DNA from: Thermoprotei archaeon
GTDB taxonomy: Archaea > Thermoproteota > Thermoprotei > QMSL01 > B3-G16
Direction of reading: 5' to 3'
DNA: 64,000 nt
NCBI GenBank assembly: GCA_021162845.1
Contig: JAGGXX010000054.1
Span: 4,537 to 68,536 of the forward strand
The position numbers were made by a program, and so were the translations under genes. Below, piece after piece: positions 29,506-55,030 of the stretch. The notes under the pieces were generated by a model. It was not told the origin of the DNA, did not search any database, and was given only the letters and a program-made list of their open reading frames with translations. The stretch's first letter is position 1. Each line of letters starts with the position of its first letter.

Positions 29506-29514
29506 GGTGAGAGC

Positions 29515-30270: not shown

Positions 30271-30279
30271 GGGATCAAC

Positions 30280-30993: not shown

Positions 30994-31033
30994 GAAACTT
31001 TATCTAAGGGAGTTCCTTAGTAAGGAAAGGAAA

Positions 31034-33797: not shown

Positions 33798-33859
33798 CTC
33801 GTGCCATCTTCATATATACCTAAATCTTCATCCATAATATTGTATGGAGGTGGTGATAT

Positions 33860-34513: not shown

Positions 34514-34627
34514 AGTAAGGCTAAGATATGTAAGGGACCTCCTACTTTTTACGCTATGAATAAATAGGCATTTAGCTCCCATTATTGTTGGAATACATTC
34601 GGTCTACTCTCTCGGGGTTGAGAGTTC

Positions 34628-35253: not shown

Positions 35254-36685
35254 ACTATACTTCAGGATATCACCTACGGAGGAAGAGCTCTTTTCCGTGA
35301 CGTTAGCTGAGGACAGGAGCACATGTGAGGTAAGGCTTAGCCTAGAAGAGGTAATAGAGGACATAGAGGGAGGAATCGCTTACGGCCTCATAGCGGATCA
35401 CATATTACCAGCTAAGGGGGACGTGGCACATATCAAGGAGCTAATACTCCAGAGCTGGATCAAGGAGGAGCTCAAGATCCTTCATGAAGAGTACGAGGAT
35501 CTGTTCTATGAGCTATTCATAGACCCTAGCTACTTCATCATGAGCCATTACCTCCGTAAGGGTAAGGTACTCTTCATGTTTAAACAACATTATAGGCATC
35601 TAGCCTCAACCGCCTTAGAGCAGCTCGAGAGAGAACAGGTTATGTGGAGAGTTCTCAGGAAAATGGAGAGAGACGGTTACGTAATCATAAAGGATTCCAA
35701 GGTTAGGCCTTTAAGGGACATTACTCGGGAATTGGGTGAAATTAAGAAGCGGAGTATGATCCCTATTAAGGGCTTTTTAAAGGCTCCAATGGGCCTCTCT
35801 ATTTTCTCGTTATTAATTCGCCTAATTAAGGTACCAACCATAGGTGAGGAAAACGGTATATGGAGTTACCCGGTATGGGTGGAGACTGATGCAGGGCTCA
35901 AGCCACTTAAAGCTGAGGAAGAGGTTAAAACAGGCGTAATAAGGGATGGGGCAAGGCTGAGAAGACTTGGAGGGATGATAAATACTGCGTACTTAGCAAC
36001 ATGGGAGAATGGGGAAAAGAGGGTCATCAAGGTATTTAAGGAGTGGACTGATCTTAAATGGCTACCATTGGCCTTCTGGGCCCTAGGTGCGTATACATTT
36101 GATCCAACGGGCAAGGGACGCCTTATAAATGAATTCACCATGAATAGGAAATTCAAGAGAGCCGGTATCAGAGTTCCTGAGATCTACCACATAGATTTAA
36201 GTAAGAAGATCATCGTAGAGCAGTTCGTTCCAGGCCTCACGTTGAAGGACGTCATAGTTAATATACTCAAAGGTAAGCACCATGTAGAGGACGTCGAGCA
36301 CATAAGATCCGCTTTACATGAGCTGAGCATAGTACATGAAAAGGGCTTCGTAATAGGCGATGCTAATCCCACCAATGTGATAATTAATGATAAGAACGTG
36401 TTTTTCGTGGATTTAGAACAGGCGAGAGAAGGGGATAAGTTCTCCTGGGATCTAGCCACCATGATGTTCTTCTTAGCGCATTACGTCCAGGGATCAGCGA
36501 GGAACCTAGACATGATAATCAAAGCCATGGTAGAGGGCTATACCGAAAGAGGCGATGTAGAGGTAATCAAGAAGGCCTTAAAGATACCTTATCTGAGGGT
36601 CTACGCTTTCTTCGCGTATCCCCATGCCATCTATAAGGTGTATAAGTTGGTCTCCAAATACGCAGGAGGAATTGAGATAAGGTGA
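35186..36685 (+). CDS. atypical protein kinase-like protein (Bud32/RIO/Kdo-kinase superfamily C-terminal domain) with ~240-aa N-terminal region of unknown function
   Basis: The C-terminal half has a G-rich loop region, conserved Lys (KRVIKVFKE), catalytic-loop-like VIGDANPTNVII and metal-binding VDLEQA (a DFG equivalent). It overlaps the next gene by 4 nt. Confidence 0.5.
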   Translation: MARESINTVKEELKASLILPYIKLYFRISPTEEELFSVTLAEDRSTCEVRLSLEEVIEDIEGGIAYGLIADHILPAKGDVAHIKELILQSWIKEELKILHEEYEDLFYELFIDPSYFIMSHYLRKGKVLFMFKQHYRHLASTALEQLEREQVMWRVLRKMERDGYVIIKDSKVRPLRDITRELGEIKKRSMIPIKGFLKAPMGLSIFSLLIRLIKVPTIGEENGIWSYPVWVETDAGLKPLKAEEEVKTGVIRDGARLRRLGGMINTAYLATWENGEKRVIKVFKEWTDLKWLPLAFWALGAYTFDPTGKGRLINEFTMNRKFKRAGIRVPEIYHIDLSKKIIVEQFVPGLTLKDVIVNILKGKHHVEDVEHIRSALHELSIVHEKGFVIGDANPTNVIINDKNVFFVDLEQAREGDKFSWDLATMMFFLAHYVQGSARNLDMIIKAMVEGYTERGDVEVIKKALKIPYLRVYAFFAYPHAIYKVYKLVSKYAGGIEIR

Positions 36686-37389
36686 TGAGCCTAAGGGTAA
36701 AGGAGATAGGAGACGTATTTAACAGAATAGCTAAATCCTTTGATAAGACCCGTAGAAAGCCTTGGAGGTGCGCGATAGAGGCTATAGAGGGGTTAACGGA
36801 GGGTAGGATACTGGACGCTGGATGCGGAAACGGGAGGCACCTCCTTCTGTTATCCAGCATGGGCTTTAGGGTAGTAGGCGTAGACCTCTCCAAGGAGCTC
36901 ATTAGAATAGCGAAAAGGCGAATTAAGGAATTCTCGCTAACTAACGAGGCTGAGCTCATAGTGGGCGATATACGCTTTCTGCCGTTCAAAGATGAGGTAT
37001 TCGACGGCGTACTGGCTATTGCGGTGATACATCACATACCCGGCGTAGTGGAAAGGGTTAGGACCTTAAAGGATATGAAAAGGGTCATGAAGCCCCATGC
37101 CAAGGCAGTATTAACGGCATGGAGCATATGGAGTTTAAAGAGGCTCTGGAGAGCAGTAATGTATAAGTTTAAGAGGCCTTTCTCATCGGAGTTCGGCGAT
37201 GCGTTCATACCATGGCGCTTGGGCTCGGATACCGTATGGAGGTTCTATCACCTCTTCACAGCTAGGGAGTTCAGGAAAATAATCGAAAATGCGGGACTAA
37301 AGGCTATTAAGAGCTACGGGGAAAGGAAGAAGTATGGGCTTTTCCCAGAAAACTTAGTAGTAGTGGCGGTGAAAATTGACACTCACTAA
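36682..37389 (+). CDS. class I SAM-dependent methyltransferase, Trm9-like (Methyltransf_11) candidate tRNA wobble-uridine methyltransferase
   Basis: Motif I ILDAGCGNGRHL closely resembles the Trm9/ALKBH8 VLDxGCGNGKYL motif. It overlaps the start of elp3. Confidence 0.5.
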   Translation: MMSLRVKEIGDVFNRIAKSFDKTRRKPWRCAIEAIEGLTEGRILDAGCGNGRHLLLLSSMGFRVVGVDLSKELIRIAKRRIKEFSLTNEAELIVGDIRFLPFKDEVFDGVLAIAVIHHIPGVVERVRTLKDMKRVMKPHAKAVLTAWSIWSLKRLWRAVMYKFKRPFSSEFGDAFIPWRLGSDTVWRFYHLFTAREFRKIIENAGLKAIKSYGERKKYGLFPENLVVVAVKIDTH

Positions 37390-38821
37390 AGCTCGAGTTA
37401 GGCCTAAGAAGCCGGTGAGAATGGCATCTGGCGTTACGGTAGTAGCCATAATGACCAAGCCCTTCCCTTGTCCACATGGCAAATGCATATACTGTCCCGG
37501 AGGACCGGAAATAGGCACACCACAAAGCTATTTAGAGGATTCGCCAGCTGTCGCCAGGGCATTAAGGCATGGTTTTGATCCATATGAACAGGTGAGAGCT
37601 AGGCTGATGCAATACGTGGTCATGGGGCACGAGCCCTCAAAAGTCGAGCTTATAATCATGGGTGGGACGTTCACAGCACTCCCACTAGACTACCAAGAGT
37701 GGTTCGTAGCTATGGCCTTAGAGGCGATGAACAGATTCCCAAAGCCCAAAGCTAAGAGCTGGATTAGCCTGGAGAAAGCTCAACAAAGGAATGAAAAAGC
37801 CAGAGTGAGGTGCATAGGCATTACCTTTGAGACTAGGCCCGACTGGGCTAAGGAGAAACAAATAGACAGGATGCTAAGAATGGGAGGTACGAGGGTGGAG
37901 ATAGGTGTACAGTCGATATACGATGATGTCCTGAAGAGGATAGAGAGAGGACATACGGTAAGGGATACCATAGAGGCTACGCGGCTACTCAAGGACGCAG
38001 GATTTAAGGTATGTTATCACATAATGCCAGGGCTACCCGGATCTGATATAGATAGGGACTTCGATATGTTTAAGACGATATTTGAAAACCCGGATTTCCG
38101 GCCAGATATGCTGAAGATATACCCGACGCTGGTCATACCTGGGACTAAGCTCTACGAGATGTGGAAGAGGGGCGAATATAATCCTATGACAACTCAGGAT
38201 GCCTTGGAACTTCTCATTAAGATAGCGCCTCACATACCTAAGTGGGTCAGGATAATGAGAATACAGCGGGATATACCGCTTCACCATGTAGCTGCTGGCG
38301 TTAATATAGGCAACCTAAGACAGGTCTTCGAGGATTTAGTGAGGAGGAGGGGTATCAGATACCGCGAGATACGGTTCAGGGAAGTCGGTATCAGAATGAT
38401 AAAGTATGGAGAGGTACCAAGTGAGGAGAACATAAAGCTGCTCAAAGAGGAATATGAGGCAAGTCATGGGACTGAGGTCTTTTTATCCTTTGAAGATGTG
38501 AAAAAGGACATCCTCATAGGATTCCTTAGGCTTAGGATACCGTCTTCTGAGGCCCAGAGATGGGAGGTTAAACCCAGGACTGCTATAGTTAGGGAGTTAC
38601 ACGTATACGGACCTCAGGTTCCCATAGGCGATAGAGAGGAAATGGCATGGCAGCATAAGGGGTATGGCAGACGCTTGCTCATGGAGGCCGAGAGGATAGC
38701 CCTCGAGGAATATGATGCCAGGAGGATGTTGATAATCTCGGGTATAGGGGTTAGAGACTACTATAGAAGGCTGGGCTATCGTAGACATCCTCATTCCACG
38801 TATATGTTAAAGAAGCTTTAA
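37376..38821 (+). CDS. elp3: Elongator complex protein 3 homolog (radical SAM + GNAT; tRNA uridine34 carboxymethyl-transferase)
   Basis: Radical SAM cluster CPHGKCIYCPGG. Conserved KPVRMASGVTVVAIMTKP upstream of it. C-terminal GNAT region with HKGYGRRLLMEAERIA. The track start is TTG (37376); the first ATG is at 37421. Confidence 0.8.
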   Translation: MTLTKARVRPKKPVRMASGVTVVAIMTKPFPCPHGKCIYCPGGPEIGTPQSYLEDSPAVARALRHGFDPYEQVRARLMQYVVMGHEPSKVELIIMGGTFTALPLDYQEWFVAMALEAMNRFPKPKAKSWISLEKAQQRNEKARVRCIGITFETRPDWAKEKQIDRMLRMGGTRVEIGVQSIYDDVLKRIERGHTVRDTIEATRLLKDAGFKVCYHIMPGLPGSDIDRDFDMFKTIFENPDFRPDMLKIYPTLVIPGTKLYEMWKRGEYNPMTTQDALELLIKIAPHIPKWVRIMRIQRDIPLHHVAAGVNIGNLRQVFEDLVRRRGIRYREIRFREVGIRMIKYGEVPSEENIKLLKEEYEASHGTEVFLSFEDVKKDILIGFLRLRIPSSEAQRWEVKPRTAIVRELHVYGPQVPIGDREEMAWQHKGYGRRLLMEAERIALEEYDARRMLIISGIGVRDYYRRLGYRRHPHSTYMLKKL

Positions 38822-40393
38822 TCAGCCGCTGAAAAGCAGTAATATCACCAAGGGGGAGCTCACATCGGACGAAAGATATTCCTCAACGGTGGATATGATC
38901 TTATTCTTATCCCATATCGGAACCCTTAACATACCATATCTTTTCTTCACGTAGCCTAGGATGAGCCTGGCACTAATAGGCGCGCTGTCGTCTAGGACTA
39001 GGACGATAGATTTACCGAGCTTATCTAGGAGTACGTGATTTCGAGCTAGATCTCCGATAGTGGTCACAACTACTATCCTACCTCTAAAGCCAGCCATAAT
39101 CTCCCCTAAGCCTAAGCCTAAGGGGCTCAGAAGGCGGTAAGCTATGTCTATCACGTCAACGGGGAGCTTAATCGCATATCGTCTGCTCTTCACATCATAG
39201 TCGGCCTTAGCTTTACTTATGAGGACTTCATTCAGCAAGCAACGTAAACGTGGGCATGAGATCGCGTTAACTATGATAAGGCCCTTTGTTCTGGCCAGCA
39301 GTGTCTTTAGGATTTCTACAAGGTGGTTTACAGACGAAGAAAGTGGAGGTAATTGTGGTGGAATGAGGCCTTCGACCCTTACCAGGTATTCGATCGTTGG
39401 ATCACGTAGCTTTAGAAAATCTGAGACGATGTGCCTTACAAGAACGTAGGATGTAAGGTGTCGCTTTAAATCAGCCTTGCCCTTTATTTGAATTCTCCCG
39501 AAAAGCTGGGTTCGCATGTAATTTTCCAGAATAGGTTCGCCTAGCTCTACTACGAGGAGTTCCTTTACATGATCGCTTAATGACTTAAACCAAGACGGAG
39601 GGGAGGAGAGCATATGAAGGGGGGCAAATATCGATATGCCTAATACGCTTATCTCGGTATCCTTGCCTAGGCCTTGGAGGTAAGAGGTTACATAGGAGTA
39701 CGAGTAACCAGCGCATAATATGGATCGCTCACTGAGGTCCTCTGGAATCACGTTAAACTCGAACTCAGAGAACAGACGTTCATATATCTTGGATAACGTG
39801 ATCCTTCTCTCCACGTTACGAACGAATGACTCGTGCATCCATCTATGAGGGAACTCCCAGTGCTTCGAGAATACGGGTTCAGCTCTTACGCTAGAGACTT
39901 CTATGTCGACAAGACCTAGGAAATCGAATTCGGGTAAGCCTAGTACAATTGGTACCTCAATGGCCTCTGAAAGTTCGGAAGCTATCTCCATGAAACGGGA
40001 CAAGTCATTCACGTTAAGGGGTTCGAGGTAAAGCACAGAAGAGCAAGAAGCGGCTAAACGCGGATCAAAACCTAAGCTTGGTGATGTTAATATTAATAAT
40101 GAACCTCGAATCCCTGAGAGGACTACCTCATGAAGAGAGGAGGATATCTCAAATAATTCCTGGGAAGAAAGGGCTAAAGCCGCCCTACAGCCAGTGACAG
40201 AAGCACCTAAACATATACTTAAGGCGGTTATGGGATCTTCCACTGTCATGAAGTTGAGGTTCCTTCTAGTGAGAGACATCCTACCTAACGAATCCGAGGT
40301 ACATATGAGAAGATCATAAGATAGCTTATCCAGTGTATGAAGGATCGTCTGTGACAAGCTCAAGAGCTCACGTCTAGGGATGTCAGGGGACAT
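38822..40393 (-). CDS. hypothetical protein with a 2-oxoacid:ferredoxin oxidoreductase alpha (POR_N, Pyr-domain)-like N-terminal region, apparently degenerate
   Basis: VEDPITALSICLGASVTGCRAALALSSQEL resembles the POR_N core (E-D-E...GAS.AG.RA.TATS). I see no Fe-S Cys cluster and no clear GDG...NN TPP motif. Confidence 0.3.
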   Translation of the reverse strand: MSPDIPRRELLSLSQTILHTLDKLSYDLLICTSDSLGRMSLTRRNLNFMTVEDPITALSICLGASVTGCRAALALSSQELFEISSSLHEVVLSGIRGSLLILTSPSLGFDPRLAASCSSVLYLEPLNVNDLSRFMEIASELSEAIEVPIVLGLPEFDFLGLVDIEVSSVRAEPVFSKHWEFPHRWMHESFVRNVERRITLSKIYERLFSEFEFNVIPEDLSERSILCAGYSYSYVTSYLQGLGKDTEISVLGISIFAPLHMLSSPPSWFKSLSDHVKELLVVELGEPILENYMRTQLFGRIQIKGKADLKRHLTSYVLVRHIVSDFLKLRDPTIEYLVRVEGLIPPQLPPLSSSVNHLVEILKTLLARTKGLIIVNAISCPRLRCLLNEVLISKAKADYDVKSRRYAIKLPVDVIDIAYRLLSPLGLGLGEIMAGFRGRIVVVTTIGDLARNHVLLDKLGKSIVLVLDDSAPISARLILGYVKKRYGMLRVPIWDKNKIISTVEEYLSSDVSSPLVILLLFSG

Positions 40394-40535: not shown

Positions 40536-40635
40536 GCCGGGGTGCCCGAGTGGACCAAGGGGCTGGCCTGGAGAAGGCCTAGAAAGCCAGTTCCCCATAC
40601 GGGGAGCGCGGGTTCGAATCCCGCCCCCGGCGCCA
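40536..40635 (+). tRNA. tRNA-Ser (class II, long variable arm, G73 discriminator, encoded CCA) with a short (~11 nt) intron in the anticodon loop; anticodon most likely GGA
   Basis: Hand-folded. Acceptor GCCGGGG/CCCCGGC. D arm CCC-GAGTGGACCAA-GGG. Anticodon stem CTGGC/GCCAG enclosing 18 nt (CTGGAG + intron + A). Variable arm hairpin CCCC-ATAC-GGGG. T arm GCGGG-TTCGAAT-CCCGC. Discriminator G, then CCA. A TATA-like ttataaag lies ~45 bp upstream. Confidence 0.75.
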
Positions 40636-41032
40636 TAATGGGATGTGGTTTAACCAATTTATTTTTACCTTCTATCTTCGTTCAATTGAAGGAAAGATTC
40701 AGCGTAAACGCCTTGAGAGAAGAGAGATAGGCCTCAACTATTATATACAGGTAGATAGTCAGCAGATAGTTCCGTAAAGAGGACTAATCCTAGGAGGACA
40801 TCTAAGTCTTCACCGTTAGGTGGTAGGCTAGTACTCATCAACTACAAGCGAGCTAAGCTACCTAACGAGCATGCCAAGGAATAACCAAGAACAGCCCGCT
40901 GCAAGTTTCCATAATTTCCAAGGAATAACTAAAGAATAAAACACGGGCAACCACCCTCTTTTACTTGCAATATTTAGAAGCATTTAGGAATAAAAAGAAA
41001 TAATACAAAAAGAGAGATATAGCTTCAGTATA

Positions 41033-42400
41033 ATGATTAGGGGTTGTCTAAAAATGAGACCTAACGTGCTTATTTTCCATACCGATCAACAGAGCCTCTG
41101 GACGATTAGCCTTTATGCGCGCTTAGTATACGGCGATAAACCCTTAGTAGAGACACCGAACATCGATAGGATCGGAAAGGAAGGAGCTGTATTCACTAAC
41201 TTTTTCGCTAATAGCGCGGTATGTACCCCATCACGTGGCTGCTTCCTCACAGGGAGATATCCCCATTATCATGGAGCCTACAAGAATAATGTGCCGCTCA
41301 ATAGGTCCGAGATAACCTTCGCTGAAATCCTAAGGAGACACGGCTATGAAACTGGCTATGCGGGTAAGTGGCATCTAGATGGGACACCGCGCCCTGGTTG
41401 GGTTCATCCGGAGCGTTCGATGGGATTTGAGCACTCCGAGTACATGTTTAATCGAGGGCACTGGAAGAAGGTAGAAGAGTATAAGGGAATGCAGCCCATA
41501 GTCTATCCATACCATGAGATTGGCGACGAAAGAACGTACATGACCGATTGGCTCAAGGATAAGACGATAGAGTTCATCCAGCGTCCACATACCCGTCCCT
41601 TCTGTTTCATGGTTAGCTTCCCAGATCCACATCCTCCCTACGTAGTCCGTACGCCCTATAGCGATATGTACGATCCGGATGATATGCCTATCCCGGATAC
41701 TTTTCGGCAAAAGAATCTTCCACGATGGGCGGATGAACGTCAAATTTATAAGCGAAATCCCCGTTGTCAGGAAGATTGGCTGCGTCATGTTAAAGCTCAA
41801 TATTGCGGTATGGTTAAGCTAATTGATGATTGTGTAGGTCAGATTTTACGTTGTCTTGAAGAGCAGGGTATCCTAGATGAAACGATAATCGTTTTTACGA
41901 CGGATCATGGGGACTACATGGGAGAGCACGGCCTAATGGGCAAGAATATGCTATACGAAACAGTTTACCATATTCCTCTACTGATACGCTGGCCGGAGAA
42001 GATAAGGAAGGGAACTGTGATCGAAGAGATCGTCAGCACCGTCGATTTTCAGCAAACGCTTCTTGGACTCATCGGGATTAAACCATGTGGTCGAGAACAG
42101 GGCAATGATGCCTCACCTCTTCTGCGGGGAGAGAAGATCGATTGGGAGAATAGGGTCTTCATCTATCACTCCAGTCACAATTTTGCGGGGATTATTACTC
42201 CTGATTTCGAATTGGTCTATGCAAGATATGGAGAGTCCATACTCTTTGATCGAAAGAATGATCCCGATCAGGTGAACAATCTATTCAATGATCCAGGGTA
42301 TCGAAAGGTAATCGATGAGCTCACTAAGCAACTCATTGAGCATCACCGAAAATTAAATTCCCCGGAGATCACTTGGCTTAACGCATACAATAGGTCTTAA
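41033..42400 (+). CDS. sulfatase (arylsulfatase family, Cys-type formylglycine site)
   Basis: Signature CTPSRGCFLTGRYP (C-x-P-x-R) near the N-terminus. ...TDHGDYMGEHG... in the C-terminal half. No signal peptide is obvious. Confidence 0.8.
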   Translation: MIRGCLKMRPNVLIFHTDQQSLWTISLYARLVYGDKPLVETPNIDRIGKEGAVFTNFFANSAVCTPSRGCFLTGRYPHYHGAYKNNVPLNRSEITFAEILRRHGYETGYAGKWHLDGTPRPGWVHPERSMGFEHSEYMFNRGHWKKVEEYKGMQPIVYPYHEIGDERTYMTDWLKDKTIEFIQRPHTRPFCFMVSFPDPHPPYVVRTPYSDMYDPDDMPIPDTFRQKNLPRWADERQIYKRNPRCQEDWLRHVKAQYCGMVKLIDDCVGQILRCLEEQGILDETIIVFTTDHGDYMGEHGLMGKNMLYETVYHIPLLIRWPEKIRKGTVIEEIVSTVDFQQTLLGLIGIKPCGREQGNDASPLLRGEKIDWENRVFIYHSSHNFAGIITPDFELVYARYGESILFDRKNDPDQVNNLFNDPGYRKVIDELTKQLIEHHRKLNSPEITWLNAYNRS

Positions 42401-42691
42401 TTATTCATCCTCAAACACCAAAAGTCCAAGATACTTAATAATGAAAAACTTAAGAGATCATAAAACCTATGATAAACAGAATGGTGCTAAGGAGAAAGCA
42501 TGAGAGAAACATTAACAGAAGATTCCTGGTTTTCCCTATTTCTAATAAAGAATGTCTAGTAGATGAATATTTTAGGATTCAGGAATTATAGCGAGGAGTA
42601 AAAAGCTCAATTTAATCTCTTACTTCAAAAAGAAAAATTAGAAAAGTTAAAGACCTTCAGCTAATTAAGATAGAATACAGGCGAATGATTA

Positions 42692-43816
42692 ATGAGGAAG
42701 GGTGGTAATTTAAGCGGGGTAACGAAATACGACCCGGATAAGGCCTATGAGGGGTATACGCTGTTCTGCCATACTTACGATCCACCAAACGTTGCCCAAG
42801 GCGAGCTTGCACACATGTACCTTATCGATATGAATGGAAACATAGTTCATGAATGGACCGCCAAGACTGCAGTTCAACTACTGGAGCTCTTGCCTAATGG
42901 TAATCTGTATTACACGACAAGGGATAGATCAGACATTAACTACGCCGGGTTGAGGGAGATAGATCCGAAGAGTAATGTGGTCTGGTCCTTTCATTGTAGG
43001 ATAGACCACGATTTTCATGTAATGGATAATGGCCACCTGATGATACATTGCATCATAGATAAAATGGCTCCCGAAATAGGGCCGGAATTAAAACGCTGCC
43101 CATATATCATTGAGATAACCCGAGAGAAGGAGCTTATCTGGGAGTGGTTCGGAGACGAGCACATAAAGGAGCTAGAGGAACTTTGTGGGATAAAATTCCC
43201 TCTTAAGGCCTCTCAGTTCAAGGGTTACCCGGAACATATGAAGAGGCATCTCCTCTTCGATTGGGCCCATAACAATACCTGTGAGGTATTGCCAGATAAT
43301 CCGTCTGGACGAAAGGATTCGAGGTTTAAGGCTGGCAATATCCTCTTCAGTTATAGGAGCTTGGATGTCATAGGGGTAATTGATCGAGAGACCGGAGAGA
43401 TCGTTTGGGCATGGGGCCCAGGCATCTTAGATGGACAGCATCAGCCAACCATGCTTCCTAACGGGAACATACTCATATTCGATAATGGGACGCGCCGCGG
43501 TTGGTCTCGCGTAATAGAGGTAAACCCCCTGGAGGAGGAGATAGTCTGGGAGTATACGGCTACGCCTAAGGAGAGCTTCTTTAGTCCTTACATATCAGGC
43601 GCTCAGCTATTGCCTAATGGGAACATATTCATCTGTGAAGGAGGGCCTTGCCGACTTTTCGAGATTACACGAGATGGGGAAATAGTCTGGGAGTACCATA
43701 GCCCTTATAAGGGGACAAAGGGAACTCATGGGATCTATCGCGCGACGCGGTATTCCCCAGAGTACGTTAAGCCATTACTCGAAAGAATAAAGGAATCTTC
43801 TGAACAAGAGGGCTAA
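42692..43816 (+). CDS. arylsulfotransferase (ASST)-like beta-propeller protein
   Basis: Repeated blades with LPNGN(L/I) and D/EIVWEW/Y motifs (LLPNGNLYYT, MLPNGNILIFDNG, LLPNGNIFICEGG, GEIVWEYHS). Fold-level resemblance only. Confidence 0.4.
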   Translation: MRKGGNLSGVTKYDPDKAYEGYTLFCHTYDPPNVAQGELAHMYLIDMNGNIVHEWTAKTAVQLLELLPNGNLYYTTRDRSDINYAGLREIDPKSNVVWSFHCRIDHDFHVMDNGHLMIHCIIDKMAPEIGPELKRCPYIIEITREKELIWEWFGDEHIKELEELCGIKFPLKASQFKGYPEHMKRHLLFDWAHNNTCEVLPDNPSGRKDSRFKAGNILFSYRSLDVIGVIDRETGEIVWAWGPGILDGQHQPTMLPNGNILIFDNGTRRGWSRVIEVNPLEEEIVWEYTATPKESFFSPYISGAQLLPNGNIFICEGGPCRLFEITRDGEIVWEYHSPYKGTKGTHGIYRATRYSPEYVKPLLERIKESSEQEG

Positions 43817-43975
43817 ATGTAAAAGGCCGGCTTTAGCTTTTTACATATTTATATTCGCTGTGATTCCTATGTCACACTCCTAGGGTAAATGTAAGCTGTA
43901 TGAGGAGATATGTTATATACCATATCCTCCTTGACGAATACTTCATTGAAGATATTATATATGTGTCCCTTAGCC

Positions 43976-44015
43976 ATACCCTTTCGACGAAATGAGCAAT
44001 AACTGTGATGTGCCT
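43976..44015. repeat. ~40-bp element ATACCCTTTCGACGAAATGAGCAATAACTGTGATGTGCCT; an interrupted copy lies at 46110..46210
   Basis: Both copies share ATACC(C)TT(T)CGA...CGACGAAAT(A)GAGCAATA...TG...TGTGCCT. The second copy carries three insertions. They flank the hypothetical/MscS/hypothetical gene trio. Confidence 0.35.
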
Positions 44016-44101
44016 GAAAGAGAAATTGGAAATCTCTAATTCATGCTTATCGAAAGCGATATAAATAAAACGTGTAAAAACAGGATCACGGGATAAGAGA
44101 T

Positions 44102-44455
44102 ATGTCGTTATCTTACGTTAAGGGAAGTTTGAAGAACGTAGATAAGGACGGAGACGGAATCGCAGATCATCTTCAGTTTAAAATGATTAACTACATAGGG
44201 AGCGGCTCAGCTTACGTTTCCGACTTTAAGGTTCTAGTAGACGGAGAAGACATGACTGATAAAGCCACTTTGAAGATAGCTGGTCAAGCCCCTAAACCTG
44301 TTAAATCATTAACTTACGTAACAGCGTATTACGGTGATGAGATATTGGTTGAAATTAAGCATGACGGTAAGATTAAGCCCGGCTTACATAGAGTTGAATT
44401 AAGCGCTAGGATCGAATGGTATCCCATCAGCGTTAAGTTCGAAGATACGGTATAA
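44102..44455 (+). CDS. hypothetical protein
   Basis: 117-aa ORF with no recognisable motif. AT-rich surroundings. Confidence 0.3.
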   Translation: MSLSYVKGSLKNVDKDGDGIADHLQFKMINYIGSGSAYVSDFKVLVDGEDMTDKATLKIAGQAPKPVKSLTYVTAYYGDEILVEIKHDGKIKPGLHRVELSARIEWYPISVKFEDTV

Positions 44456-44634
44456 TTAAATTAGTTTATAATGAATATAATGGGTCGATCTCTTTTTTCT
44501 ATGTGTTAAAAATTTATTAAGAAAGTCATCGATTTGACTACTATCACATGAAGTAGTGTTTCTTTTAAGCACTATTCCTTACTGCATGATAACCTAAGAA
44601 ATGCTTATTAAGTACATCCTTAAGAGACAGTGAT

Positions 44635-45270
44635 ATGACAAAGATAGAGGAAAAACTATCGAGGAGTGAATATAAGCGTAGAGGGGGTAAAGGTTTCGCT
44701 AAAATGATCGCTCTCCTGGTGTTATGTGCTTCAGCGCTAATGATTAATGATGCCTTTTTCGTATATGCCGTGTCACCGTTTATGCCTGCGTTTTCCAATT
44801 ATAAGGTCTACATAGATGCCATCATAGTATTAGGTCTTGGTTACATGGTGGTGAACTCCTTCGCTAGCAGTATCTACTGGTTAATGAGGATGGAGGTAGA
44901 TTATGCAACTGCTTCGTTGATGAGGACCATAGTGAGGATAATGGGCATAGCCATTTTATTAGCGATACTGACCTCGGTGTTTAACGTAAACCCTTCAGCG
45001 GCCCTCACGGTGGGCTCATTTGTAGGGATGGTGGTGGGCTTTGCTACTCAAAACGTCCTGAACCAGGCTGTTGCAGGAATCTTCCTAGCGCTGACGAGAC
45101 CCTTCAAACCTGGTGATAGTATAAAGGTAGCCGGACAAGAGGGCATAGTGAAGGAAATAGGCGTCATGCGCACCATTATAGTCAGTGAGGATGGATCAAG
45201 GGAAATACTGATACCTAGTAGTAGCATAGTTAACGCCACGATAATCAGGATGCAGAGGCAACAAAACTGA
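44635..45270 (+). CDS. mscS: small-conductance mechanosensitive channel (MscS family)
   Basis: Pore helix and beta-domain signature VGSFVGMVVGFATQNVLNQAVAGIFLALTRPFKPGDSIKVAGQEGIVKEIGVMRTII. Confidence 0.65.
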   Translation: MTKIEEKLSRSEYKRRGGKGFAKMIALLVLCASALMINDAFFVYAVSPFMPAFSNYKVYIDAIIVLGLGYMVVNSFASSIYWLMRMEVDYATASLMRTIVRIMGIAILLAILTSVFNVNPSAALTVGSFVGMVVGFATQNVLNQAVAGIFLALTRPFKPGDSIKVAGQEGIVKEIGVMRTIIVSEDGSREILIPSSSIVNATIIRMQRQQN

Positions 45271-45284
45271 TATCTAATGTAAGC

Positions 45285-46085
45285 TTAGATAAAGCCCATC
45301 ACGTTTTCAAGCTTAGATAGTACAACCTCTATATCTACTTCCCTTAGGTTCGGCGTGTAGATCAATAGCCCTCCTCGACTATCCAGCTTACAGGTTATCC
45401 TCTTACCTATCTCCGGCAGTAGTGGAGTCACAAAGGTGATAGAGGATATCTCATGAGCTGATGACTTCACCTTGGAGTAGATATCGGTAATATCCAAGCC
45501 TTCTCTTTTGATGGAGACCTCATCCAGGACAGTATCACCTATCTGAGCCCTCTTAAACGTCGCCCTTATTATGTTGCCTGAGACCTCATGCTCCTTTGCG
45601 GTAACCCACTTCTCAAGGGCATTGATGTGACTACGCTCTAGATGTAAGGGGGATGCTGAGGTCGTGTCGCCGTAAAGCCTTAATGAGGCTAGCTGTGCGA
45701 TGGCCCTAGCAATACGTTTATTCGGAGCATCAAATATGATGAGAAGACCTGAGATGACCCTAATCCAGACATCGTGCTCCATATAGATCTCGTATTCCTC
45801 TATCCTGCGTTCCCCTCCACGTACATATGAGAACTTCCCACGAAACGTATACGAGAAACGTAATCTAGCATCCTTAGTGGTACCCCTTATGCTGGATAAA
45901 CGCCCATTTAGTCCCACTACGATCTTGGAGAGATTTTCAAGTCTTCGTAATGATGCCTTATCGCCGGCTTCCTCGAAATAAGCCTTAAGCTCTTTAAGCG
46001 AAGCCCCATTTAAAGTTGATAAGATATCCTCAGGGGCCTGGGTTCTCCCTCTCGGAAGTAGAAATAAAGAGAGAGCCCTAGGCAT
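45285..46085 (-). CDS. hypothetical protein
   Basis: 266-aa ORF with no motif recognised. Confidence 0.3.
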   Translation of the reverse strand: MPRALSLFLLPRGRTQAPEDILSTLNGASLKELKAYFEEAGDKASLRRLENLSKIVVGLNGRLSSIRGTTKDARLRFSYTFRGKFSYVRGGERRIEEYEIYMEHDVWIRVISGLLIIFDAPNKRIARAIAQLASLRLYGDTTSASPLHLERSHINALEKWVTAKEHEVSGNIIRATFKRAQIGDTVLDEVSIKREGLDITDIYSKVKSSAHEISSITFVTPLLPEIGKRITCKLDSRGGLLIYTPNLREVDIEVVLSKLENVMGFI

Positions 46086-46109
46086 GCATCAACCCTTGTA
46101 ATGGTCTTT

Positions 46110-46210
46110 ATACCTTCGAATATATTAAGCTATTCATTACGACGAAATAGAGCAATACGACATGATGATGGGATTCTCTTGTACTAAAAGAGCTCGCCCC
46201 TAATGTGCCT
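46110..46210. repeat. interrupted second copy of the 43976..44015 element
   Basis: See above. Confidence 0.35.
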
Positions 46211-46212
46211 TC

Positions 46213-48966
46213 TCAATCAGTGCTTAGCTCTAGAATGGAGTCTTCCTTCCTCAGACCAGCACACGAGGGGCACAGCACGCGCTTTCTGAAGAACGTCCTC
46301 TTAATTATCGCGCACTCTGGACATATAGGCCTGCCACAGGATGAACACGTAAGGGCATGTGAAGGGCATAGTTCTCTACCACACGATGAACAACGGATAA
46401 TATGGGATGGACAAACTGGCGCGTTACATATGGAACAGAGATGGACATGATCGGAACAGAGGGGTTTGCCACATACGACGCAGAGGCTTACATGCTTTAC
46501 ACAGAGAGGTGATGCACAATATGAGCACTTTATGATGTGAGATGTACACAGGGGAGCGCCACAGTGCTTACATAATGGTACCTCCACGAGTGATGTAATG
46601 GTTGATAGTGATTTCTCGACTAGCTTACCGCAGACGATGCATCTACCGAAGGAAGCCTTAAGCGAGTACGGATCGATAAGCATACTCACTGAGGAGGTCC
46701 CATATGCTAACTTAAGGCGATATCTCAATATGAACACGCGCCCTTCCTCAACGATCCTTAGGTCTGGACGGACTTCTATTTCCTGAACGGCCGCCTTCAG
46801 GAAAGCCTCATATTTCCTAACAAGGGCTTCTCGCTTTTCCTCATAAGACCTTTCGATAGTATCTAATTCATCGATTAAGCTTTTTATGGCCTTCTTAAGC
46901 TTTAATACGTTCTTCTCAGCGAGTCTAAGCTCGCGCTTAAGCTTCCTGAGCTCCTTCGTTACGTCTCGCGTGTTCAGGCGCCTTTTCCTCAGCTCTTCAC
47001 GGATTTCCTCTAGCCTCTGAACCCTATGCTTTAAGGACTTATAATCGCTCTCATGAAGCTTCAACTCGGCTTCGAGCACAGGCTTTGTGTTAAGCAATTC
47101 TCTCTTCTTTAGCTCAAAGCGAAGCCTTAACTCCTCCTCTTCCCTCTCAAGTTCGCCCTTTACCTTTTCTTCCAGACGCTTCATTAAAGGCGTTAGCTCG
47201 CTTTTATCGAATGTAGCCACCTCTAAGGGTGCTACGTAATAGACTTTGGTCTTCAACAGCTGGCGTAACATGGAGATTACTTCATCTCGAGGGGGAGAAG
47301 AAGTTGATGTGCTTTGCGCCTGGAAATCATAGAGGTCATACACAAGAGGCAGATCCCTGACCTCACCCAAGTGCTCCATAAGCTGTAACTTTTTACCCTT
47401 CATCACCACTAAGACGTGTTCTCCTCGGGATAACTGGAGCTTCTTCAGCCTGAGCCTGAGGGCCGAGCGCAGTAGGTAATAGGGTAGTGCTTCCGCCTCT
47501 ATATCAAAACCCACGATCTTCAATCCTAGGGCTTTGAACTTCCGAAGAACTTCTTCCTTCGAGAGTTTAGGCCTTAAAATGGGTAGGCTTTCCGATGGGG
47601 CCTTGATGTCCTTTAAGGCCCTTTTAGGTTTAACTATGGGTCTCTTCCCGACAAGCATACGTATCTCGGATGGCTGCAGTGGGCCTCTATGGTAAGTTAT
47701 CAGCCAGCGTGGCTCAACTATCACGGTCCTTCCGGATTCGTAATTATGATATAGGAAGGTGCGTGGCCTTAGCCTAGGGATTATCTCGGTTAAATCCTCG
47801 TCTATATTAAGGCCTTTCTTGACCTTTGCTATGTCCTGTCTGGTGGCTAACCTCCCCACAAATCTATGAGCCGCATTGGACAATACCTTGTAGTCTATAT
47901 CCGCTGGATTCTGAGTGGCCAACAGACAACCTAGACCGAAGGCTCTGCCCTGTTTTATCAATAACATGAGGCCAGCTTTAGATGGAGGCTTTCCAACGGG
48001 AGGTATGAATCCCACGAGTTCATCGAAGTAAAGGAGAAGGCGTAGGCTTGAGGTACCGCCTTGTCTTAGTAGCCACCTATATAGCTCTTGAAGAAAAGCG
48101 CCTATGAAGAACTGCTTCTCTTCCATAGTCGTCATGAACCTTAAGTCAATGACCGATATCGTGCCGCGCTGACTGAACTTCCCAAAATTAATCATCTCGC
48201 CATCGAGCCAGCTCTTGTAAGTCGGGTGAGAGAGGAGGACGTTTAGGCTACGGGCTAACTTGAGCCTAGCCCTCTGTGGTATAAAATCCTCAACGGCGAG
48301 GGAGCCTATTTGATCGAATGGAGGGTTGATGACTTCCTGAACTAAATCCTCAAGTGATATGGATTCCCCATCTAGCCAGTGGGTTTCTATTATTTGGGAG
48401 AGAAGAGCGTGTTCTTGGGTGTTCCTCTCGCCATATCCAGCCAATCTCAATAAAAGGGACACCGTATTGTCTATGGCATCGTAAAGGACCGTCTTGTCCT
48501 CGGCCACTATTTCCCTTATGTTTGGAATAGGATCCAGCGATGGTCTAATGGAAAGAGGGACGCCTGTTGAGCTACGAGGGGTGTATATTACGACACGGAC
48601 GTTCTCTACATAGTCACATATCTTCTCGCGGGATACCCCCCACTTGGATAGTTCCCGTAAATACAATCCCCTTAGCCTTTCCGCATACTCCCCAGGGTCG
48701 ATACCCCGCTCCTTAGCTTCAAGGTCCGACCAAGGACGGAAATCTAGATCAGGCGAGGCTATAGCGAGCGCGCCTATATCGCCCTTGGGGTCTATTGCTA
48801 TAATGGAATAACCCTTAAGGGCTAGCTCCTCCACTATGGCCTTACATAAGGTAGTCTTCCCCGACCCTGTTGCTCCCAGAACCACCGTATGCTTCAGAAG
48901 GGTATCCGTGTTAATACCGAAGGTCTCGCCACTAGACGTGCGCCCTATCACGATGACATCGCTCAT
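46213..48966 (-). CDS. HerA/FtsK-superfamily (DUF853/DUF87-like) P-loop ATPase fused to a long coiled coil and a C-terminal array of ~7 tandem 15-aa Cys3His zinc-knuckle repeats
   Basis: Walker A VVLGATGSGKTT, then IAIDPKGDIGAL (a DxKGD motif of DUF853/HerA-like ATPases). Walker B LLLYFDELVG. Residues ~560-720 are a heptad-rich, charged coiled coil (ELEREEEELRLRFELKKRELL...). C-terminus: CKHCGAPLCTSHIIK CSYCASPLCVKHVSL CVVCGKPLCSDHVHL CSICNAPVCPSHIIR CSSCGRELCPSHALT CSSCGRPICPECAII. Confidence 0.6.
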   Translation of the reverse strand: MSDVIVIGRTSSGETFGINTDTLLKHTVVLGATGSGKTTLCKAIVEELALKGYSIIAIDPKGDIGALAIASPDLDFRPWSDLEAKERGIDPGEYAERLRGLYLRELSKWGVSREKICDYVENVRVVIYTPRSSTGVPLSIRPSLDPIPNIREIVAEDKTVLYDAIDNTVSLLLRLAGYGERNTQEHALLSQIIETHWLDGESISLEDLVQEVINPPFDQIGSLAVEDFIPQRARLKLARSLNVLLSHPTYKSWLDGEMINFGKFSQRGTISVIDLRFMTTMEEKQFFIGAFLQELYRWLLRQGGTSSLRLLLYFDELVGFIPPVGKPPSKAGLMLLIKQGRAFGLGCLLATQNPADIDYKVLSNAAHRFVGRLATRQDIAKVKKGLNIDEDLTEIIPRLRPRTFLYHNYESGRTVIVEPRWLITYHRGPLQPSEIRMLVGKRPIVKPKRALKDIKAPSESLPILRPKLSKEEVLRKFKALGLKIVGFDIEAEALPYYLLRSALRLRLKKLQLSRGEHVLVVMKGKKLQLMEHLGEVRDLPLVYDLYDFQAQSTSTSSPPRDEVISMLRQLLKTKVYYVAPLEVATFDKSELTPLMKRLEEKVKGELEREEEELRLRFELKKRELLNTKPVLEAELKLHESDYKSLKHRVQRLEEIREELRKRRLNTRDVTKELRKLKRELRLAEKNVLKLKKAIKSLIDELDTIERSYEEKREALVRKYEAFLKAAVQEIEVRPDLRIVEEGRVFILRYRLKLAYGTSSVSMLIDPYSLKASFGRCIVCGKLVEKSLSTITSLVEVPLCKHCGAPLCTSHIIKCSYCASPLCVKHVSLCVVCGKPLCSDHVHLCSICNAPVCPSHIIRCSSCGRELCPSHALTCSSCGRPICPECAIIKRTFFRKRVLCPSCAGLRKEDSILELSTD

Positions 48967-48985
48967 GATCGACTATCCCCATATA

Positions 48986-51862
48986 CTACGGGTTTATAAC
49001 GATATATTCGCCTTTCCGCTTACCATAGGCATAGCCTAAGGCAGTGCCACAGGCTACCCCTAATACGGCTATAACCGATGATATTACAGGCCATGTCCTC
49101 TTCGCTCCCTCATATCTCTCCTTCACTTTCGATAGCTCCTCGTACTTCGCGGTAAGTGTTTGATTCCAAGCCCTTAACGAGTCATATTTTCCGAGAAGTG
49201 TATGATAGTCCTCCAGTAATTGTACATACGTGACATTAAGCTGGAGCAGCTTAGATCTCAATTGCTCGTAATCCCGAGTTAGGTTTCCTAAGTTCATTAG
49301 CGCCAGTGTGTAATTTGTGCTTAACTGGTTGAAGTTAGCGTTGAGACGAAGGTATTTATTCCTTAGCTCCAAGTAATCCTTCTCTAGTCTCTGGAATTCC
49401 TCAAGCAGTGAGCTATACGTCTCATTAAGCTCGGCATAGGTGTCCTTTAACGAGTTGTATTTTGTGTTAAGGGAGTTATACTTAGACAGAAGCGAGTTAT
49501 AGTTCCGCTTAAGTGAGAGGTACTTCTCCACCTCCCTCTCATAAAGGGATTTATACTTGATGTCCGTAAAAGCTGGAACGTCGATTATAAGGGATGTGAG
49601 ACCGTAAACCGTGATATCGCTCTTCCCGACGAGGAGGTCATCATCATATACCTCTATGGTAAGTGAGGTGACGTTGACTAAGTTTAGCTTAACTAGACCC
49701 TCGTCGTTTGCCTTACCGGCGAATAACAAGCGTCCATCTCCGTAGACCTTAATATTAGCGAAGGGAACGACATCGCCCTTTACGGGATCGATAATTCGTA
49801 TATAAACCCCGCTTATGAGCTTCTTAAGATGCACCTCAAGATATGTGATCCCATCCAGTTCCACGGATGGATTTAGATATTCCGTGTAATTCTCGGCACT
49901 CACCTTCACCTGATATATCCCTGCAGGGAGGTTGAAGCTTACACATCCGTTTACGTCAGTGTATGAGGATGAGAGGACAGTACCCCGATTGTCCATGACA
50001 ATGACTTGGGCGTTGGGTACGGGATCCCCTGTAAGCAGATCTACCACATGTGCTCTTAGTTGTATCGGTTCCATGATCATCTTCACGGACTCAGGGGAAA
50101 CAGTTAAGTCCAAGGACGTAACGGTAGGGGCATAACCTTCGTGTTCAGCTATTAAGGTGTAACGCCCACCGCTCAACGTTAGGTTTAGCCAACCCTTAGC
50201 ATTAGTAAGGCCATTAATTATCGTGGTATTACCTTCTATGAGAACCCTAATGTTCACCCCGGAAACGGGCTTTGAGTCTATATCCAGCACCTGGATAAAG
50301 AGCTGTCTACGCTTCGTCATTAAGGCCAGCAGATAACCTACAGTTGCCTTGACGCTCTCAGGGGTGCTCTGGTCTAGAACGGAAAACGCGAAAATTCCTT
50401 TTCCACACATGACCGCAGCAACGGCTTGGTATCTTTCATCTCCCACTGTCACGAACGTATCATAGAGCGAGAAGAGGCAGGGTGCGGAGGCCTTAAGGCT
50501 ATTGGGAGCCATCACGGCAGCCCATACATTCCATGGAGATATGTTCAGCTCATTAACGAGCTTTAGGCCTATATCCGTTAGGACAGCCGCTAATGGTCTA
50601 TCCGTCATCCCATTCCAACAAAAGCCACCCACCGTAAAGTTACTAGCCGCGGATAGGAACGCAGCTAATCCCCCTTCTTCCAGGAGTGACCAGTAGTGCG
50701 CGTGACCATTAGCTACGATGGAGAAAGGATAGCCCGCGATGTTCACTAAGATCCAGCCCTTATCCCTTACACATAGAGCTAGATCCGATATGTATGCATA
50801 TGTAGGAGCAGTGCCATCTGTGATTAAGTACTCATCAGGGATTGGCATGACCGCGCCGTGAAGGTTTATCAGGGTAATGCCGCGAACATCCGATGATATT
50901 AGCCTGTACAGATCAACACTTGAGTTGACTACGTGGTAACTTAAGTTCATGGAGCTTAACTGATCCTCGATATAGGCTAAAGTAGAGGGCATATCGAGCC
51001 CGTACCAGGCGGTGTCATTTATGGCTAATAGGTATACATCCGGTTCCGAGTTAAGTAATACGTGAAGGTATATCAGTGAAGTAAGGGCTATATCCGCCTT
51101 AACGAAATCAGGCTCATGCCATACGCCTACATGCACATAGTAACCCTTACCTAAGGAATAGGCGGCAACGGTCTTGAACGCCCCAAGGTACCCTATGGCC
51201 TCGGTGGAATATAGCGTAAAGAAGGGGTCCACGTTAGTCGAGATGCTGTACGTTGCCGAGACCTTAGTAGGCAATGAGGTACCAGCGATCTTAGAGGCAT
51301 TAGCACCCTCAAAGGTCAACATCGCGTAGTCTAAGGAGCCTGCCCTCTCGATATAACCATTGACTTTAACGCTAAAGTTGAGGGCGTTGAAGAACGTGGA
51401 GACACCAGTTTCCCCTAACTCTACTGATAAATGTTCCTCATCATTAAACGCGTAACTGAACGGTAGGCCCGCTAGGTTAATGAACGTGAATCCTCGCTTA
51501 CTCATATTGACCGCAAGGTCCCTCAAAAAGTTAAGAGCGCCTTCTTCCCCTGAGAGAGCATAGGGCATGGGTACCGGTATCGCGGAACCATGGAGGTTTA
51601 TTATCAGATCCCCTGTAGATGCATTCGCAAGTATGCTCCTAAACGAGGTAAAGTTCCTTATTACCGATATCTCCATCCCATTATCCGTGAGATAGGAAGA
51701 CAGGGGTTGTAGTAGAGAGGGCGATACGTCCCTAAAAGCCCCTGAGGGAATGAATATGAGATATGCACGTCCCTCATATCCATTTCTCGATGAGGTGACG
51801 AGGAAGGGGGTCGCAAGTGAAATTAGCATAAGGGTTAATAAGGTGAGACAATGAATTCTCAT
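48986..51862 (-). CDS. secreted surface (S-layer-associated) glycoprotein with N-terminal signal peptide, beta-rich ectodomain including carboxypeptidase-regulatory-like domain, C-terminal coiled-coil stalk and single C-terminal transmembrane anchor (tetrabrachion-like architecture)
   Basis: Signal-peptide-like MRIHCLTLLTLMLISLATPFLVTSS. More than 20 N-x-S/T sequons. GVNIRVLIEGNTTIINGLTNAKGWLNLTL is a prealbumin-like fold. A ~150-aa coiled coil with YNSL/KYNSL repeats follows. C-terminal TM WPVISSVIAVLGVACGTALGYAYGKRKG. Confidence 0.6.
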   Translation of the reverse strand: MRIHCLTLLTLMLISLATPFLVTSSRNGYEGRAYLIFIPSGAFRDVSPSLLQPLSSYLTDNGMEISVIRNFTSFRSILANASTGDLIINLHGSAIPVPMPYALSGEEGALNFLRDLAVNMSKRGFTFINLAGLPFSYAFNDEEHLSVELGETGVSTFFNALNFSVKVNGYIERAGSLDYAMLTFEGANASKIAGTSLPTKVSATYSISTNVDPFFTLYSTEAIGYLGAFKTVAAYSLGKGYYVHVGVWHEPDFVKADIALTSLIYLHVLLNSEPDVYLLAINDTAWYGLDMPSTLAYIEDQLSSMNLSYHVVNSSVDLYRLISSDVRGITLINLHGAVMPIPDEYLITDGTAPTYAYISDLALCVRDKGWILVNIAGYPFSIVANGHAHYWSLLEEGGLAAFLSAASNFTVGGFCWNGMTDRPLAAVLTDIGLKLVNELNISPWNVWAAVMAPNSLKASAPCLFSLYDTFVTVGDERYQAVAAVMCGKGIFAFSVLDQSTPESVKATVGYLLALMTKRRQLFIQVLDIDSKPVSGVNIRVLIEGNTTIINGLTNAKGWLNLTLSGGRYTLIAEHEGYAPTVTSLDLTVSPESVKMIMEPIQLRAHVVDLLTGDPVPNAQVIVMDNRGTVLSSSYTDVNGCVSFNLPAGIYQVKVSAENYTEYLNPSVELDGITYLEVHLKKLISGVYIRIIDPVKGDVVPFANIKVYGDGRLLFAGKANDEGLVKLNLVNVTSLTIEVYDDDLLVGKSDITVYGLTSLIIDVPAFTDIKYKSLYEREVEKYLSLKRNYNSLLSKYNSLNTKYNSLKDTYAELNETYSSLLEEFQRLEKDYLELRNKYLRLNANFNQLSTNYTLALMNLGNLTRDYEQLRSKLLQLNVTYVQLLEDYHTLLGKYDSLRAWNQTLTAKYEELSKVKERYEGAKRTWPVISSVIAVLGVACGTALGYAYGKRKGEYIVINP

Positions 51863-54982: not shown

Positions 54983-54986
54983 GGTA

Positions 54987-55029: not shown

Positions 55030-55030
55030 C

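Follow-up and report, generated by a model that had tools for sequence, protein, structure and literature searches.

Within the 64,000-nt stretch of archaeal DNA analysed here (the window), a tRNA-Ser(GGA) gene is followed by a segment that carries a sulfatase gene and a gene for an aryl-sulfate sulfotransferase (ASST)-like protein. We consider it fairly likely that this stretch 3' of the tRNA is a plasticity zone which was filled piecemeal, and not one integrated mobile element. An earlier reading made from the letters alone (the sequence-only reading) had called it an accessory segment, and that description held: synteny with relatives breaks just past the tRNA's CCA, the sulfatase is 64–65% identical to its nearest homologues, and a sister strain carries a deletion here.

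Relatives were sought by an Elp3 scan with one genome per GTDB species, which gave two informative loci, L009 and L010. Both belong to unclassified Thermoprotei metagenome-assembled genomes (MAGs; Elp3 identity 82% and 77%, respectively), and the next nearest Elp3 loci were those of Culexmicrobium (66–68%) and Methanomethylicia (60–64%). Eleven genes equivalent to window positions 28516–40393 were colinear in both L009 and L010, and in each an intron-bearing tRNA-Ser(GGA), found with Rfam, came right after the orthologue of the last of these genes, which encodes a 523-aa protein. Alignment of the tRNAs showed identical 3' halves (the relatives' introns are about 21 and 11 nt long), and identity stopped just past the CCA; the tRNA is the last element kept in common. 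None of the window genes at 41033–64000 was found in the ~8 kb past the tRNA of L009 or L010. There, L009 carries cytidylate-kinase-like, MBL, MFS, DUF2961 and AXE1-like esterase genes, L010 carries LAGLIDADG, MtrH, GH116 and PmbA/TldD genes, and the two regions are unrelated to one another. Three genomes thus have three contents at one junction, and the tRNA end is therefore a repeated break point. The first gene past the tRNA in L010 (L010:13400-14215) encodes the LAGLIDADG-domain protein, which may be homing-endonuclease-like and relevant to the variability of the junction.

The comparison with related genomes proposed by the sequence-only reading was thus informative in one respect, with a conserved upstream block of 11 genes and tRNA and different content past the tRNA in all three genomes. 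It was less so for presence or absence of the segment as a block: the segment was missing from the ~8 kb examined, as was everything rightward, and neither an empty site nor a right junction came to light. In a tblastn search of 188 loci with selected window proteins from 28.5–64 kb, right-flank genes were not seen close to Elp3 or the tRNA in any of the relatives. A metagenome scan with the 523-aa protein returned no relative, a protein search returned the protein itself plus one 48% homologue, and neither yielded an empty site. In the Elp3 metagenome scan, the nearest relatives stood on short contigs only.

The tRNA gene at the left edge is genuine, and the sequence-only reading was right to call it tRNA-Ser. 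The Rfam tRNA model matched 40536–40632 with 47.1 bits and a 14-nt insert in the anticodon loop. Read from the sequence, the anticodon arm is CUGGC-CUGGAG[AAGGCCUAGAA]A-GCCAG, giving a GGA anticodon and an intron of ~11 nt after position 37, at about 40574–40584 (exact ends ambiguous in a run of A); 37/38 is the canonical archaeal intron position. The gene also has a long variable arm, 71% GC, a genome-encoded CCA and a cloverleaf fold energy of −54.7 kcal/mol. ARAGORN reported one tRNA at 40536–40635 as 'tRNA-???' with a four-base anticodon 'gaga', because the gene carries an archaeal intron; for annotation, the lesson is that such an intron can make ARAGORN give a nonsensical anticodon. In bacterial mode it overlooked the L009 and L010 orthologues altogether, and all three tRNAs were found by Rfam.

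An intron-bearing archaeal tRNA means that the window itself is archaeal. The window also encodes a reverse gyrase at 58906–62634 (zf_Rg, DEAD, Toprim and Topoisom_bac domains), proteins identical to its sulfatase, ASST-like protein and their neighbours are annotated 'Thermoprotei archaeon', and near-identical contigs occur in several metagenomes, including the Guaymas Basin sample Ga0190363. The host, we concluded, is a hyperthermophilic archaeon of the Thermoproteota that has not been cultured and has Culexarchaeia and Methanomethylicia as relatives.

The first gene past the tRNA encodes, as the sequence-only reading had stated, a Cys-type sulfatase with a CTPSR formylglycine motif. PF00884 matched residues 10–349 over its full length (E = 1.9e-54, profile positions 1–301 of 301) and SGSH_C also matched (E = 4e-26), a layout shared with S1 sulfatases; the motif CTPSRGCFLTGR was present, as were GKWHL and DHGD. 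The formylglycine-motif sequence SAVCTPSRGCFLTGRYP in the translation aligned with the matching motif of 9ihk ('Sulfatase_S1_30A'), which is the nearest solved structure (E = 1.2e-89, residues 8–445). The true start is probably M8 at 41054, and the NCBI call is 448 aa long. Because no signal peptide was found, the enzyme is predicted to be cytoplasmic; in contrast, some bacterial homologues are longer, and two of them carry a Tat-signal domain (PF10518). A further difference from S1 sulfatases is that no maturase gene lies near it. Among the open reading frames (ORFs) scanned across the window, there was neither a formylglycine-generating enzyme (FGE, PF03781) nor a SPASM-type anaerobic sulfatase-maturating enzyme (anSME), the sole radical-SAM protein being Elp3, and on this point too the Pfam scans agreed with the sequence-only reading.

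The relatives of this sulfatase point away from the host. Identity dropped from 100% (self) straight down to 64–65%, and no other homologue above 65% was present in a collection of 5.8 billion proteins, which includes proteins of the L009-type genome (e.g. P0242). Among the best 120 matches, all of those with names were bacterial (Planctomycetota, Poribacteria, Verrucomicrobiota, Sumerlaeota, Nealsonbacteria, Phycisphaerales), and one homologue cluster was Gemmatimonadota; cluster taxon names were almost absent for the top matches. Two of the three homologue contexts inspected looked bacterial: the top contig had 61% GC with OEP and LysM neighbours, the second carried a 23S_rRNA_IVP gene, and the third was ambiguous. 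The closest sequences with a taxon name to this sulfatase of a hyperthermophilic archaeon come from PVC-group and other bacteria, at 64% identity. The Culexarchaeia paper makes no mention of sulfatases.

The second gene was called an ASST-like propeller by the sequence-only reading, and our searches supported the call. The protein matched PF05935 (E = 3.8e-17) and PF14269 (E = 8e-13). Its AlphaFold model (pLDDT 93.3, pTM 0.92) had as best Foldseek match in the PDB the sulfotransferase Cpz4 (9kf4/9kf6; E = 1e-16, TM 0.68–0.70); a PDB sequence search returned one marginal match (E = 0.007). Judged by the model, the protein has the fold of the aryl-sulfate sulfotransferases that are independent of 3'-phosphoadenosine-5'-phosphosulfate (PAPS). 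With the PAPS-independent enzymes of E. coli (3ELQ) and Streptomyces (Cpz4, 9kf4) it shares the six-bladed propeller and PF05935/PF14269, but it is only 17–18% identical to Cpz4, and its 374 aa compare with chains of 472 (Cpz4) and 571 (E. coli). E. coli ASST is periplasmic, whereas no signal peptide was found in the window protein. A profile of the 30-member family contained a conserved QH; in weak matches (E = 7e-4 and 2e-4), it aligned with Q435-H436 in the case of 3ELQ and also with a QH in Cpz4. We take His436 of the E. coli enzyme to be the histidine that accepts and carries the sulfuryl group, and the profile's dipeptide would correspond to Q249-H250 of the window protein; in the family alignment H250 is invariant and Q249 near-invariant. 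The subfamily is very conserved (54% mean column identity, 30 members, both domains), and it has neither an NCBIfam model nor a sequence-detectable solved structure.

ASST-like homologues with 86, 83, 82 and 80% identity were found on contigs whose neighbouring genes are unlike those of the window, among them L004 (86%), L184 (82%) and L006 (80%). Contig L006 encodes an archaeal-type MtaB (TIGR01578, 454 bits) and FtsZ and therefore comes from a different archaeon; L184 has a weak, sub-threshold MsvR/V4R match. A 73% homologue was present in a 'Poribacteria' MAG obtained from the JGI sample that also contains the window organism. In L004, L184, L006 and the haloarchaeon Natronosalvus, the ASST-like gene lies near sulfatase/Phosphodiest-family and carbohydrate-active genes, and across lineages its neighbours also include GFO/MocA oxidoreductases, xylose-isomerase-like TIM barrels and glycoside hydrolases. 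The two enzymes thus differ in their nearest relatives (bacterial and at 64% for the sulfatase; at 80–86%, with one contig archaeal, for the ASST-like protein), which points to separate acquisitions and argues against a joint arrival of both genes in a single cargo.

Sister-strain contigs, 98–99.9% identical to the window, showed that this part of the genome varies within the population. Contig L176 has a 2258-bp deletion of window positions 41313–43570 at a 4-nt GAGA microhomology; its positions 1–364 match window 41064–41312 plus 43571–43689, so that most of both genes is gone and the start of the sulfatase gene is fused to the end of the ASST-like one. This junction could not have been produced by a k=141 assembler. 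The deletion indicates, therefore, that the sulfatase/ASST pair is dispensable in nature. The other sister contigs that cover the tRNA-to-sulfatase or sulfatase-to-ASST interval have the gene order of the window. The spacers are, in addition, particularly prone to small indels, as in the case of 242 extra nt at 43884 that are present in L169, L170, L172, L174 and L176 and lacking in the window, L001 and L002. The 242-nt extra sequence is moderately structured (z −3.8).

Contig L176 also carries a 365-nt insertion (L176:365-729) within the ASST-like gene, at window 43686–43689, with a 4-nt TCTG target duplication. The insertion is ORF-less and consists of an AT-rich, TATA-like head of 70 nt followed by ~290 nt that are G-rich; it folds with −153 kcal/mol in the sense direction (z −8.2) and −116 kcal/mol in the antisense direction (z −4.2). 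It matched no Rfam family, the window lacks a copy of it, and viral contigs gave no exact match. From these features, it looks like a mobile structured-RNA element. Contig L174 begins inside the insertion, and L172 begins at its right edge.

We compared the base composition of 40636–44634, which begins one base past the tRNA's CCA, with that of the whole window. The sequence-only reading had stated that the DNA becomes AT-richer 3' of the tRNA, and this was confirmed: GC was 0.424 against 0.466, and nowhere else in the window were 4 kb as AT-rich (4-kb minimum 0.425, 5th percentile 0.436, median 0.467); the dip stops near 44.6 kb, short of 46210. The coding fraction was 0.71 (0.90 in the window), intergenic GC 0.339 (0.400) and coding GC 0.459 (0.473). 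The AT excess resides mainly in non-coding DNA, and the coding composition is host-like; a GC drop after a tRNA may thus stem wholly from long spacers, which annotators should bear in mind. The spacers after the tRNA measure 397, 291, 285 and 179 nt (median for the window, 76), and to that extent the sequence-only reading was right to call them long and atypical. Spacers at 25.3–28.5 kb, however, have similar lengths (205, 410, 270 and 254), so that those past the tRNA are unusual but not unique.

Gene by gene, the sulfatase (GC 0.461; GC at third codon positions, GC3, 0.480) and the ASST-like gene (GC 0.473, GC3 0.525) were within host range, and the 117-aa gene alone was low among the segment genes (GC 0.407, GC3 0.424). 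Karlin-type codon bias (Karlin B), expressed as z-scores against a simulated null, was 3.2 for the sulfatase, 0.5 for the ASST-like gene, 2.7 for the 117-aa gene, 0.8 for MscS and 1.7 for the 266-aa gene. Other window genes gave 4.1 (FeoB), 3.7 (MgtE, like FeoB presumably native) and 2.9 (the 523-aa neighbour of the tRNA). Neither composition nor codon usage was distinct from the host, the segment's values lying inside the spread of the other window genes. The calculation suggested by the sequence-only reading thus returned the lowest GC for the segment, but coding GC and codon usage that are host-like. That reading had named uniform composition and conserved synteny as signs that would speak against it; coding composition was indeed near-uniform, but synteny was not conserved.

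A host-like composition (coding GC 0.459 vs 0.473; z = 0.5 for the ASST-like gene) would be expected if the segment were an ordinary vertical neighbourhood of old resident genes, the mismatch with L009 and L010 being due to rearrangement at genus-level or deeper divergence and the spacers being normal promoters of monocistronic genes. The equally long spacers at 25.3–28.5 kb, the distance of the two relatives with their relocated MtrH, and the gene order kept by the sister contigs that cover these genes, except L176, are in line with this explanation. We nevertheless regard it as unlikely, given that the 5.8-billion-protein collection, with its L009-type proteins such as P0242, held no sulfatase homologue above 65%, that the named nearest relatives of the sulfatase are bacterial, that the break falls just past the CCA in both relatives, and that the sulfatase/ASST pair is deleted in one strain.

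The sequence-only reading had itself proposed an old, decayed island. In this explanation, a single tRNA-targeting element (of SSV or pNOB8 type) entered the 3' end of the tRNA-Ser gene with its genes, and later lost its integrase and distal attachment site (att). Known tRNA-linked elements include the SSV-type and pNOB8-type integrase elements and the TKV/PHV-like elements of Thermococcales. Like tRNA-linked islands and archaeal integrative elements, the segment lies directly 3' of a tRNA (from 40636), has content that varies among relatives and combines accessory, partly foreign genes with a local GC dip. A segment that touches the tRNA's 3' end, similarity to both relatives that stops just past the CCA, three contents at one junction suggestive of a recombination hot spot, a local GC minimum with sparse genes, and a LAGLIDADG-domain gene directly past the L010 tRNA would all fit such an origin.

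The hallmarks of integration, however, were missing. Pfam searches of non-overlapping ORFs of at least about 85 aa at 38.8–64 kb found no integrase, recombinase or transposase, and no integrase or transposase family occurred among the ORFs scanned across the whole window, including those at 40.5–57 kb; nor was an integrase present among the tested ORFs downstream of the tRNA in L009 and L010. A decayed integrase in the spacers was also considered, and was rejected as no ORF of at least 60 aa exists there, except one overlapping the tRNA. Patterns of 26 nt and 18 nt from the 3' end of the tRNA, each searched with as many as 3 mismatches allowed, hit nothing in the window but the tRNA, and the 26-nt pattern had no second copy in L009 or L010. 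Searches with both tRNA halves (blastn-short) against the window, L009 and L010 gave nothing above chance, any partial copy of the tRNA being at most 15 nt in length. These results agree with the sequence-only reading, which had seen neither an integrase nor a duplicated tRNA 3' end. A general repeat search of 40.4–56 kb returned chance-level families only, and no right-hand boundary of the variable zone could be defined.

In contrast to integrative elements, then, the segment lacks an integrase, whole or split, and has neither a distal boundary nor a directly repeated tRNA end; its coding GC and codon usage are host-like, and its cargo genes differ in phylogenetic affinity, the separate nearest relatives of the sulfatase and ASST-like gene fitting separate acquisitions better. 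On these grounds the old, decayed island was not sustained, and we judge a single decayed element to be quite unlikely.

Several observations weigh against a plasticity zone filled piecemeal. Only two relatives span the junction, and both are distant (Elp3 77–82%, 523-aa protein 33–48%), so that synteny would be partly lost in any case; MtrH of L010 corresponds to a window gene 40 kb away, which speaks for general rearrangement as well. The right edge of the variable zone was not located, and the deletion variant was seen in one contig. The bacterial origin of the sulfatase is drawn from ~15 named matches and two of three contexts, most top matches having no taxon name. The sulfatase deviates mildly in codon usage (z = 3.2), which is compatible with a more recent transfer, and no maturase for it was seen in the 64-kb window. 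Finally, the functions proposed below follow from family membership and gene neighbourhood.

We suggest that accessory genes, each transcribed separately, accumulated one by one at a tRNA-bounded break in synteny. In this piecemeal filling, the sulfatase would have come from bacteria, long enough ago to take on the composition of the host, and the ASST-like gene may circulate among archaea and bacteria that share a habitat. Individual archaeal promoter and terminator regions could account for the long AT-rich spacers. Because both enzymes lack a signal peptide, their predicted place of action is the cytoplasm, where small organosulfates taken up by the cell, for example phenolic sulfates or sulfated sugars, would be their substrates. 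The Cys-type sulfatase would be matured to its formylglycine form by an enzyme encoded elsewhere and then hydrolyse sulfate esters, and the ASST-fold propeller may shift sulfuryl groups from donor to acceptor through a sulfo-histidine intermediate on His250.

A more far-reaching combination, in which the two enzymes form an undescribed hyperthermophilic organosulfate pair of an anaerobic archaeon, the sulfatase is matured by a system other than FGE or anSME, the tRNA-Ser flank is a recombination hot spot that captures such genes without a tyrosine integrase, and the 365-nt insertion is a new mobile non-coding RNA element, seems to us very doubtful as a whole. The case is a further instance of well-known phenomena, and the understanding of islands and sulfatases is unchanged by it. 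What it documents is a likely transfer of a formylglycine sulfatase from bacteria to an archaeon, a reverse-gyrase-bearing hyperthermophile, together with evidence from its population that the two genes can be dispensed with. To our knowledge, thermostable sulfatases are few, and this, together with the sulfated exopolysaccharides of hydrothermal settings, makes the sulfatase and its ASST-like neighbour reasonable candidates for biochemistry. Such exopolysaccharides are produced by deep-sea hydrothermal microbes, and a new thermophilic carrageenan sulfatase has been characterised (PMC11760155).

Features of the segment and its flanks in window coordinates.
Feature	Position	Strand	Details
tRNA-Ser(GGA), archaeal	40536-40635	+	Rfam tRNA, orthologues, fold
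Spacer tRNA-to-sulfatase, AT-rich	40636-41032		397 nt
S1-family sulfatase, Cys-type, formylglycine-dependent	41033-42400	+	455 aa; PF00884 + SGSH_C
Spacer sulfatase-to-ASST-like, AT-rich	42401-42691		291 nt, GC about 0.31-0.36
ASST-like six-bladed beta-propeller	42692-43816	+	374 aa; PF05935, PF14269
Spacer ASST-like-to-CGDB	43817-44101		285 nt, 242-nt strain indel at 43884
CGDB-family small protein	44102-44455	+	117 aa; PF19906
Small MscS-type mechanosensitive channel	44635-45270	+	211 aa; PF00924 E 4e-12 (MscS beta-domain)
266-aa protein, no family	45285-46085	-	closes three-gene minus-strand run
HerA/DUF87-type ATPase	46213-48966	-	917 aa; coiled coil, multiple C-terminal zinc ribbons
Surface protein	48986-51862	-	958 aa; CarboxypepD_reg domains, coiled coil, C-terminal anchor

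The spacers themselves appear to be gene-free. Hidden RNA genes in them were ruled out by the fold z-scores of the first two (−0.36 and +0.95) and by the lack of an Rfam match at E ≤ 1. In the first spacer, GC falls to 0.39, and we found no gene, no tRNA-derived repeat and no similarity to the post-tRNA sequence of L009 or L010. In the second, the 40-codon ORF called by some pipelines is probably spurious; contig L003 stops within this spacer, at window 42625.

Of the two proteins that the sequence-only reading had left as hypotheticals, the 117-aa protein is like the beta subunit of C-glycoside deglycosidase (CGDB) and the 266-aa protein remained without a family, with no match in Pfam, PADLOC or NCBIfam. 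The CGDB-family protein passed the gathering threshold of PF19906 (27.6 bits) with 37.4 bits and E = 2.5e-09, and has the small size of CGDB; a PDB sequence search returned no match. Unlike in CGDB enzymes, the partner alpha subunit CGDA (a xylose-isomerase-like TIM barrel, PF01261) does not adjoin it: its neighbours are the ASST-like and MscS genes, and the nearest AP_endonuc_2 genes are at 9742–10533 and 57568–58407, 34 kb and 13 kb away. The MscS call of the sequence-only reading agrees with the PF00924 match, and NCBIfam MscS models matched the 211-aa protein below their cutoffs. Contig ends cluster at 44490–44830 (44490 is the last position of both L001 and L002, L175 begins at 44505, and the ends of L178–L181 lie at 44713–44828), which suggests that strains differ within the spacer and in the 5' part of the MscS gene.

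The minus-strand run at 45285–51862 has gaps of 19 and 127 nt, and its genes occur together in every sister-strain contig that spans them. Given the common strand, the small gaps and this co-occurrence, the 266-aa gene belongs to the surface-protein/ATPase module and not to the sulfatase group. As a defence or conjugation module, these three genes gave only sub-threshold PADLOC and NCBIfam matches, to HerA anti-phage, CedB/CedD DNA-import and TraD families.

Housekeeping genes identified with Pfam lie on both sides, TmcA, Hjc, Elp3, GMP synthase and GlnA to the left and NAD kinase, a THUMP-SPOUT methylase, HIT and reverse gyrase to the right. The 523-aa protein between Elp3 and the tRNA (38822–40393, minus strand) is fast-evolving; the relatives detected were 48% (L009) and 33% (L010) identical, and it has a weak, sub-threshold likeness to the alpha subunit of indolepyruvate ferredoxin oxidoreductase (TIGR03336, 66 bits against a cutoff of 651). 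Further to the right, a MazE-type antitoxin and a PIN-domain toxin (54599–55633, GC 0.38–0.41) are precisely absent in L169, with a TTA microhomology at the junction, and this pair is a strain-variable toxin-antitoxin cassette.

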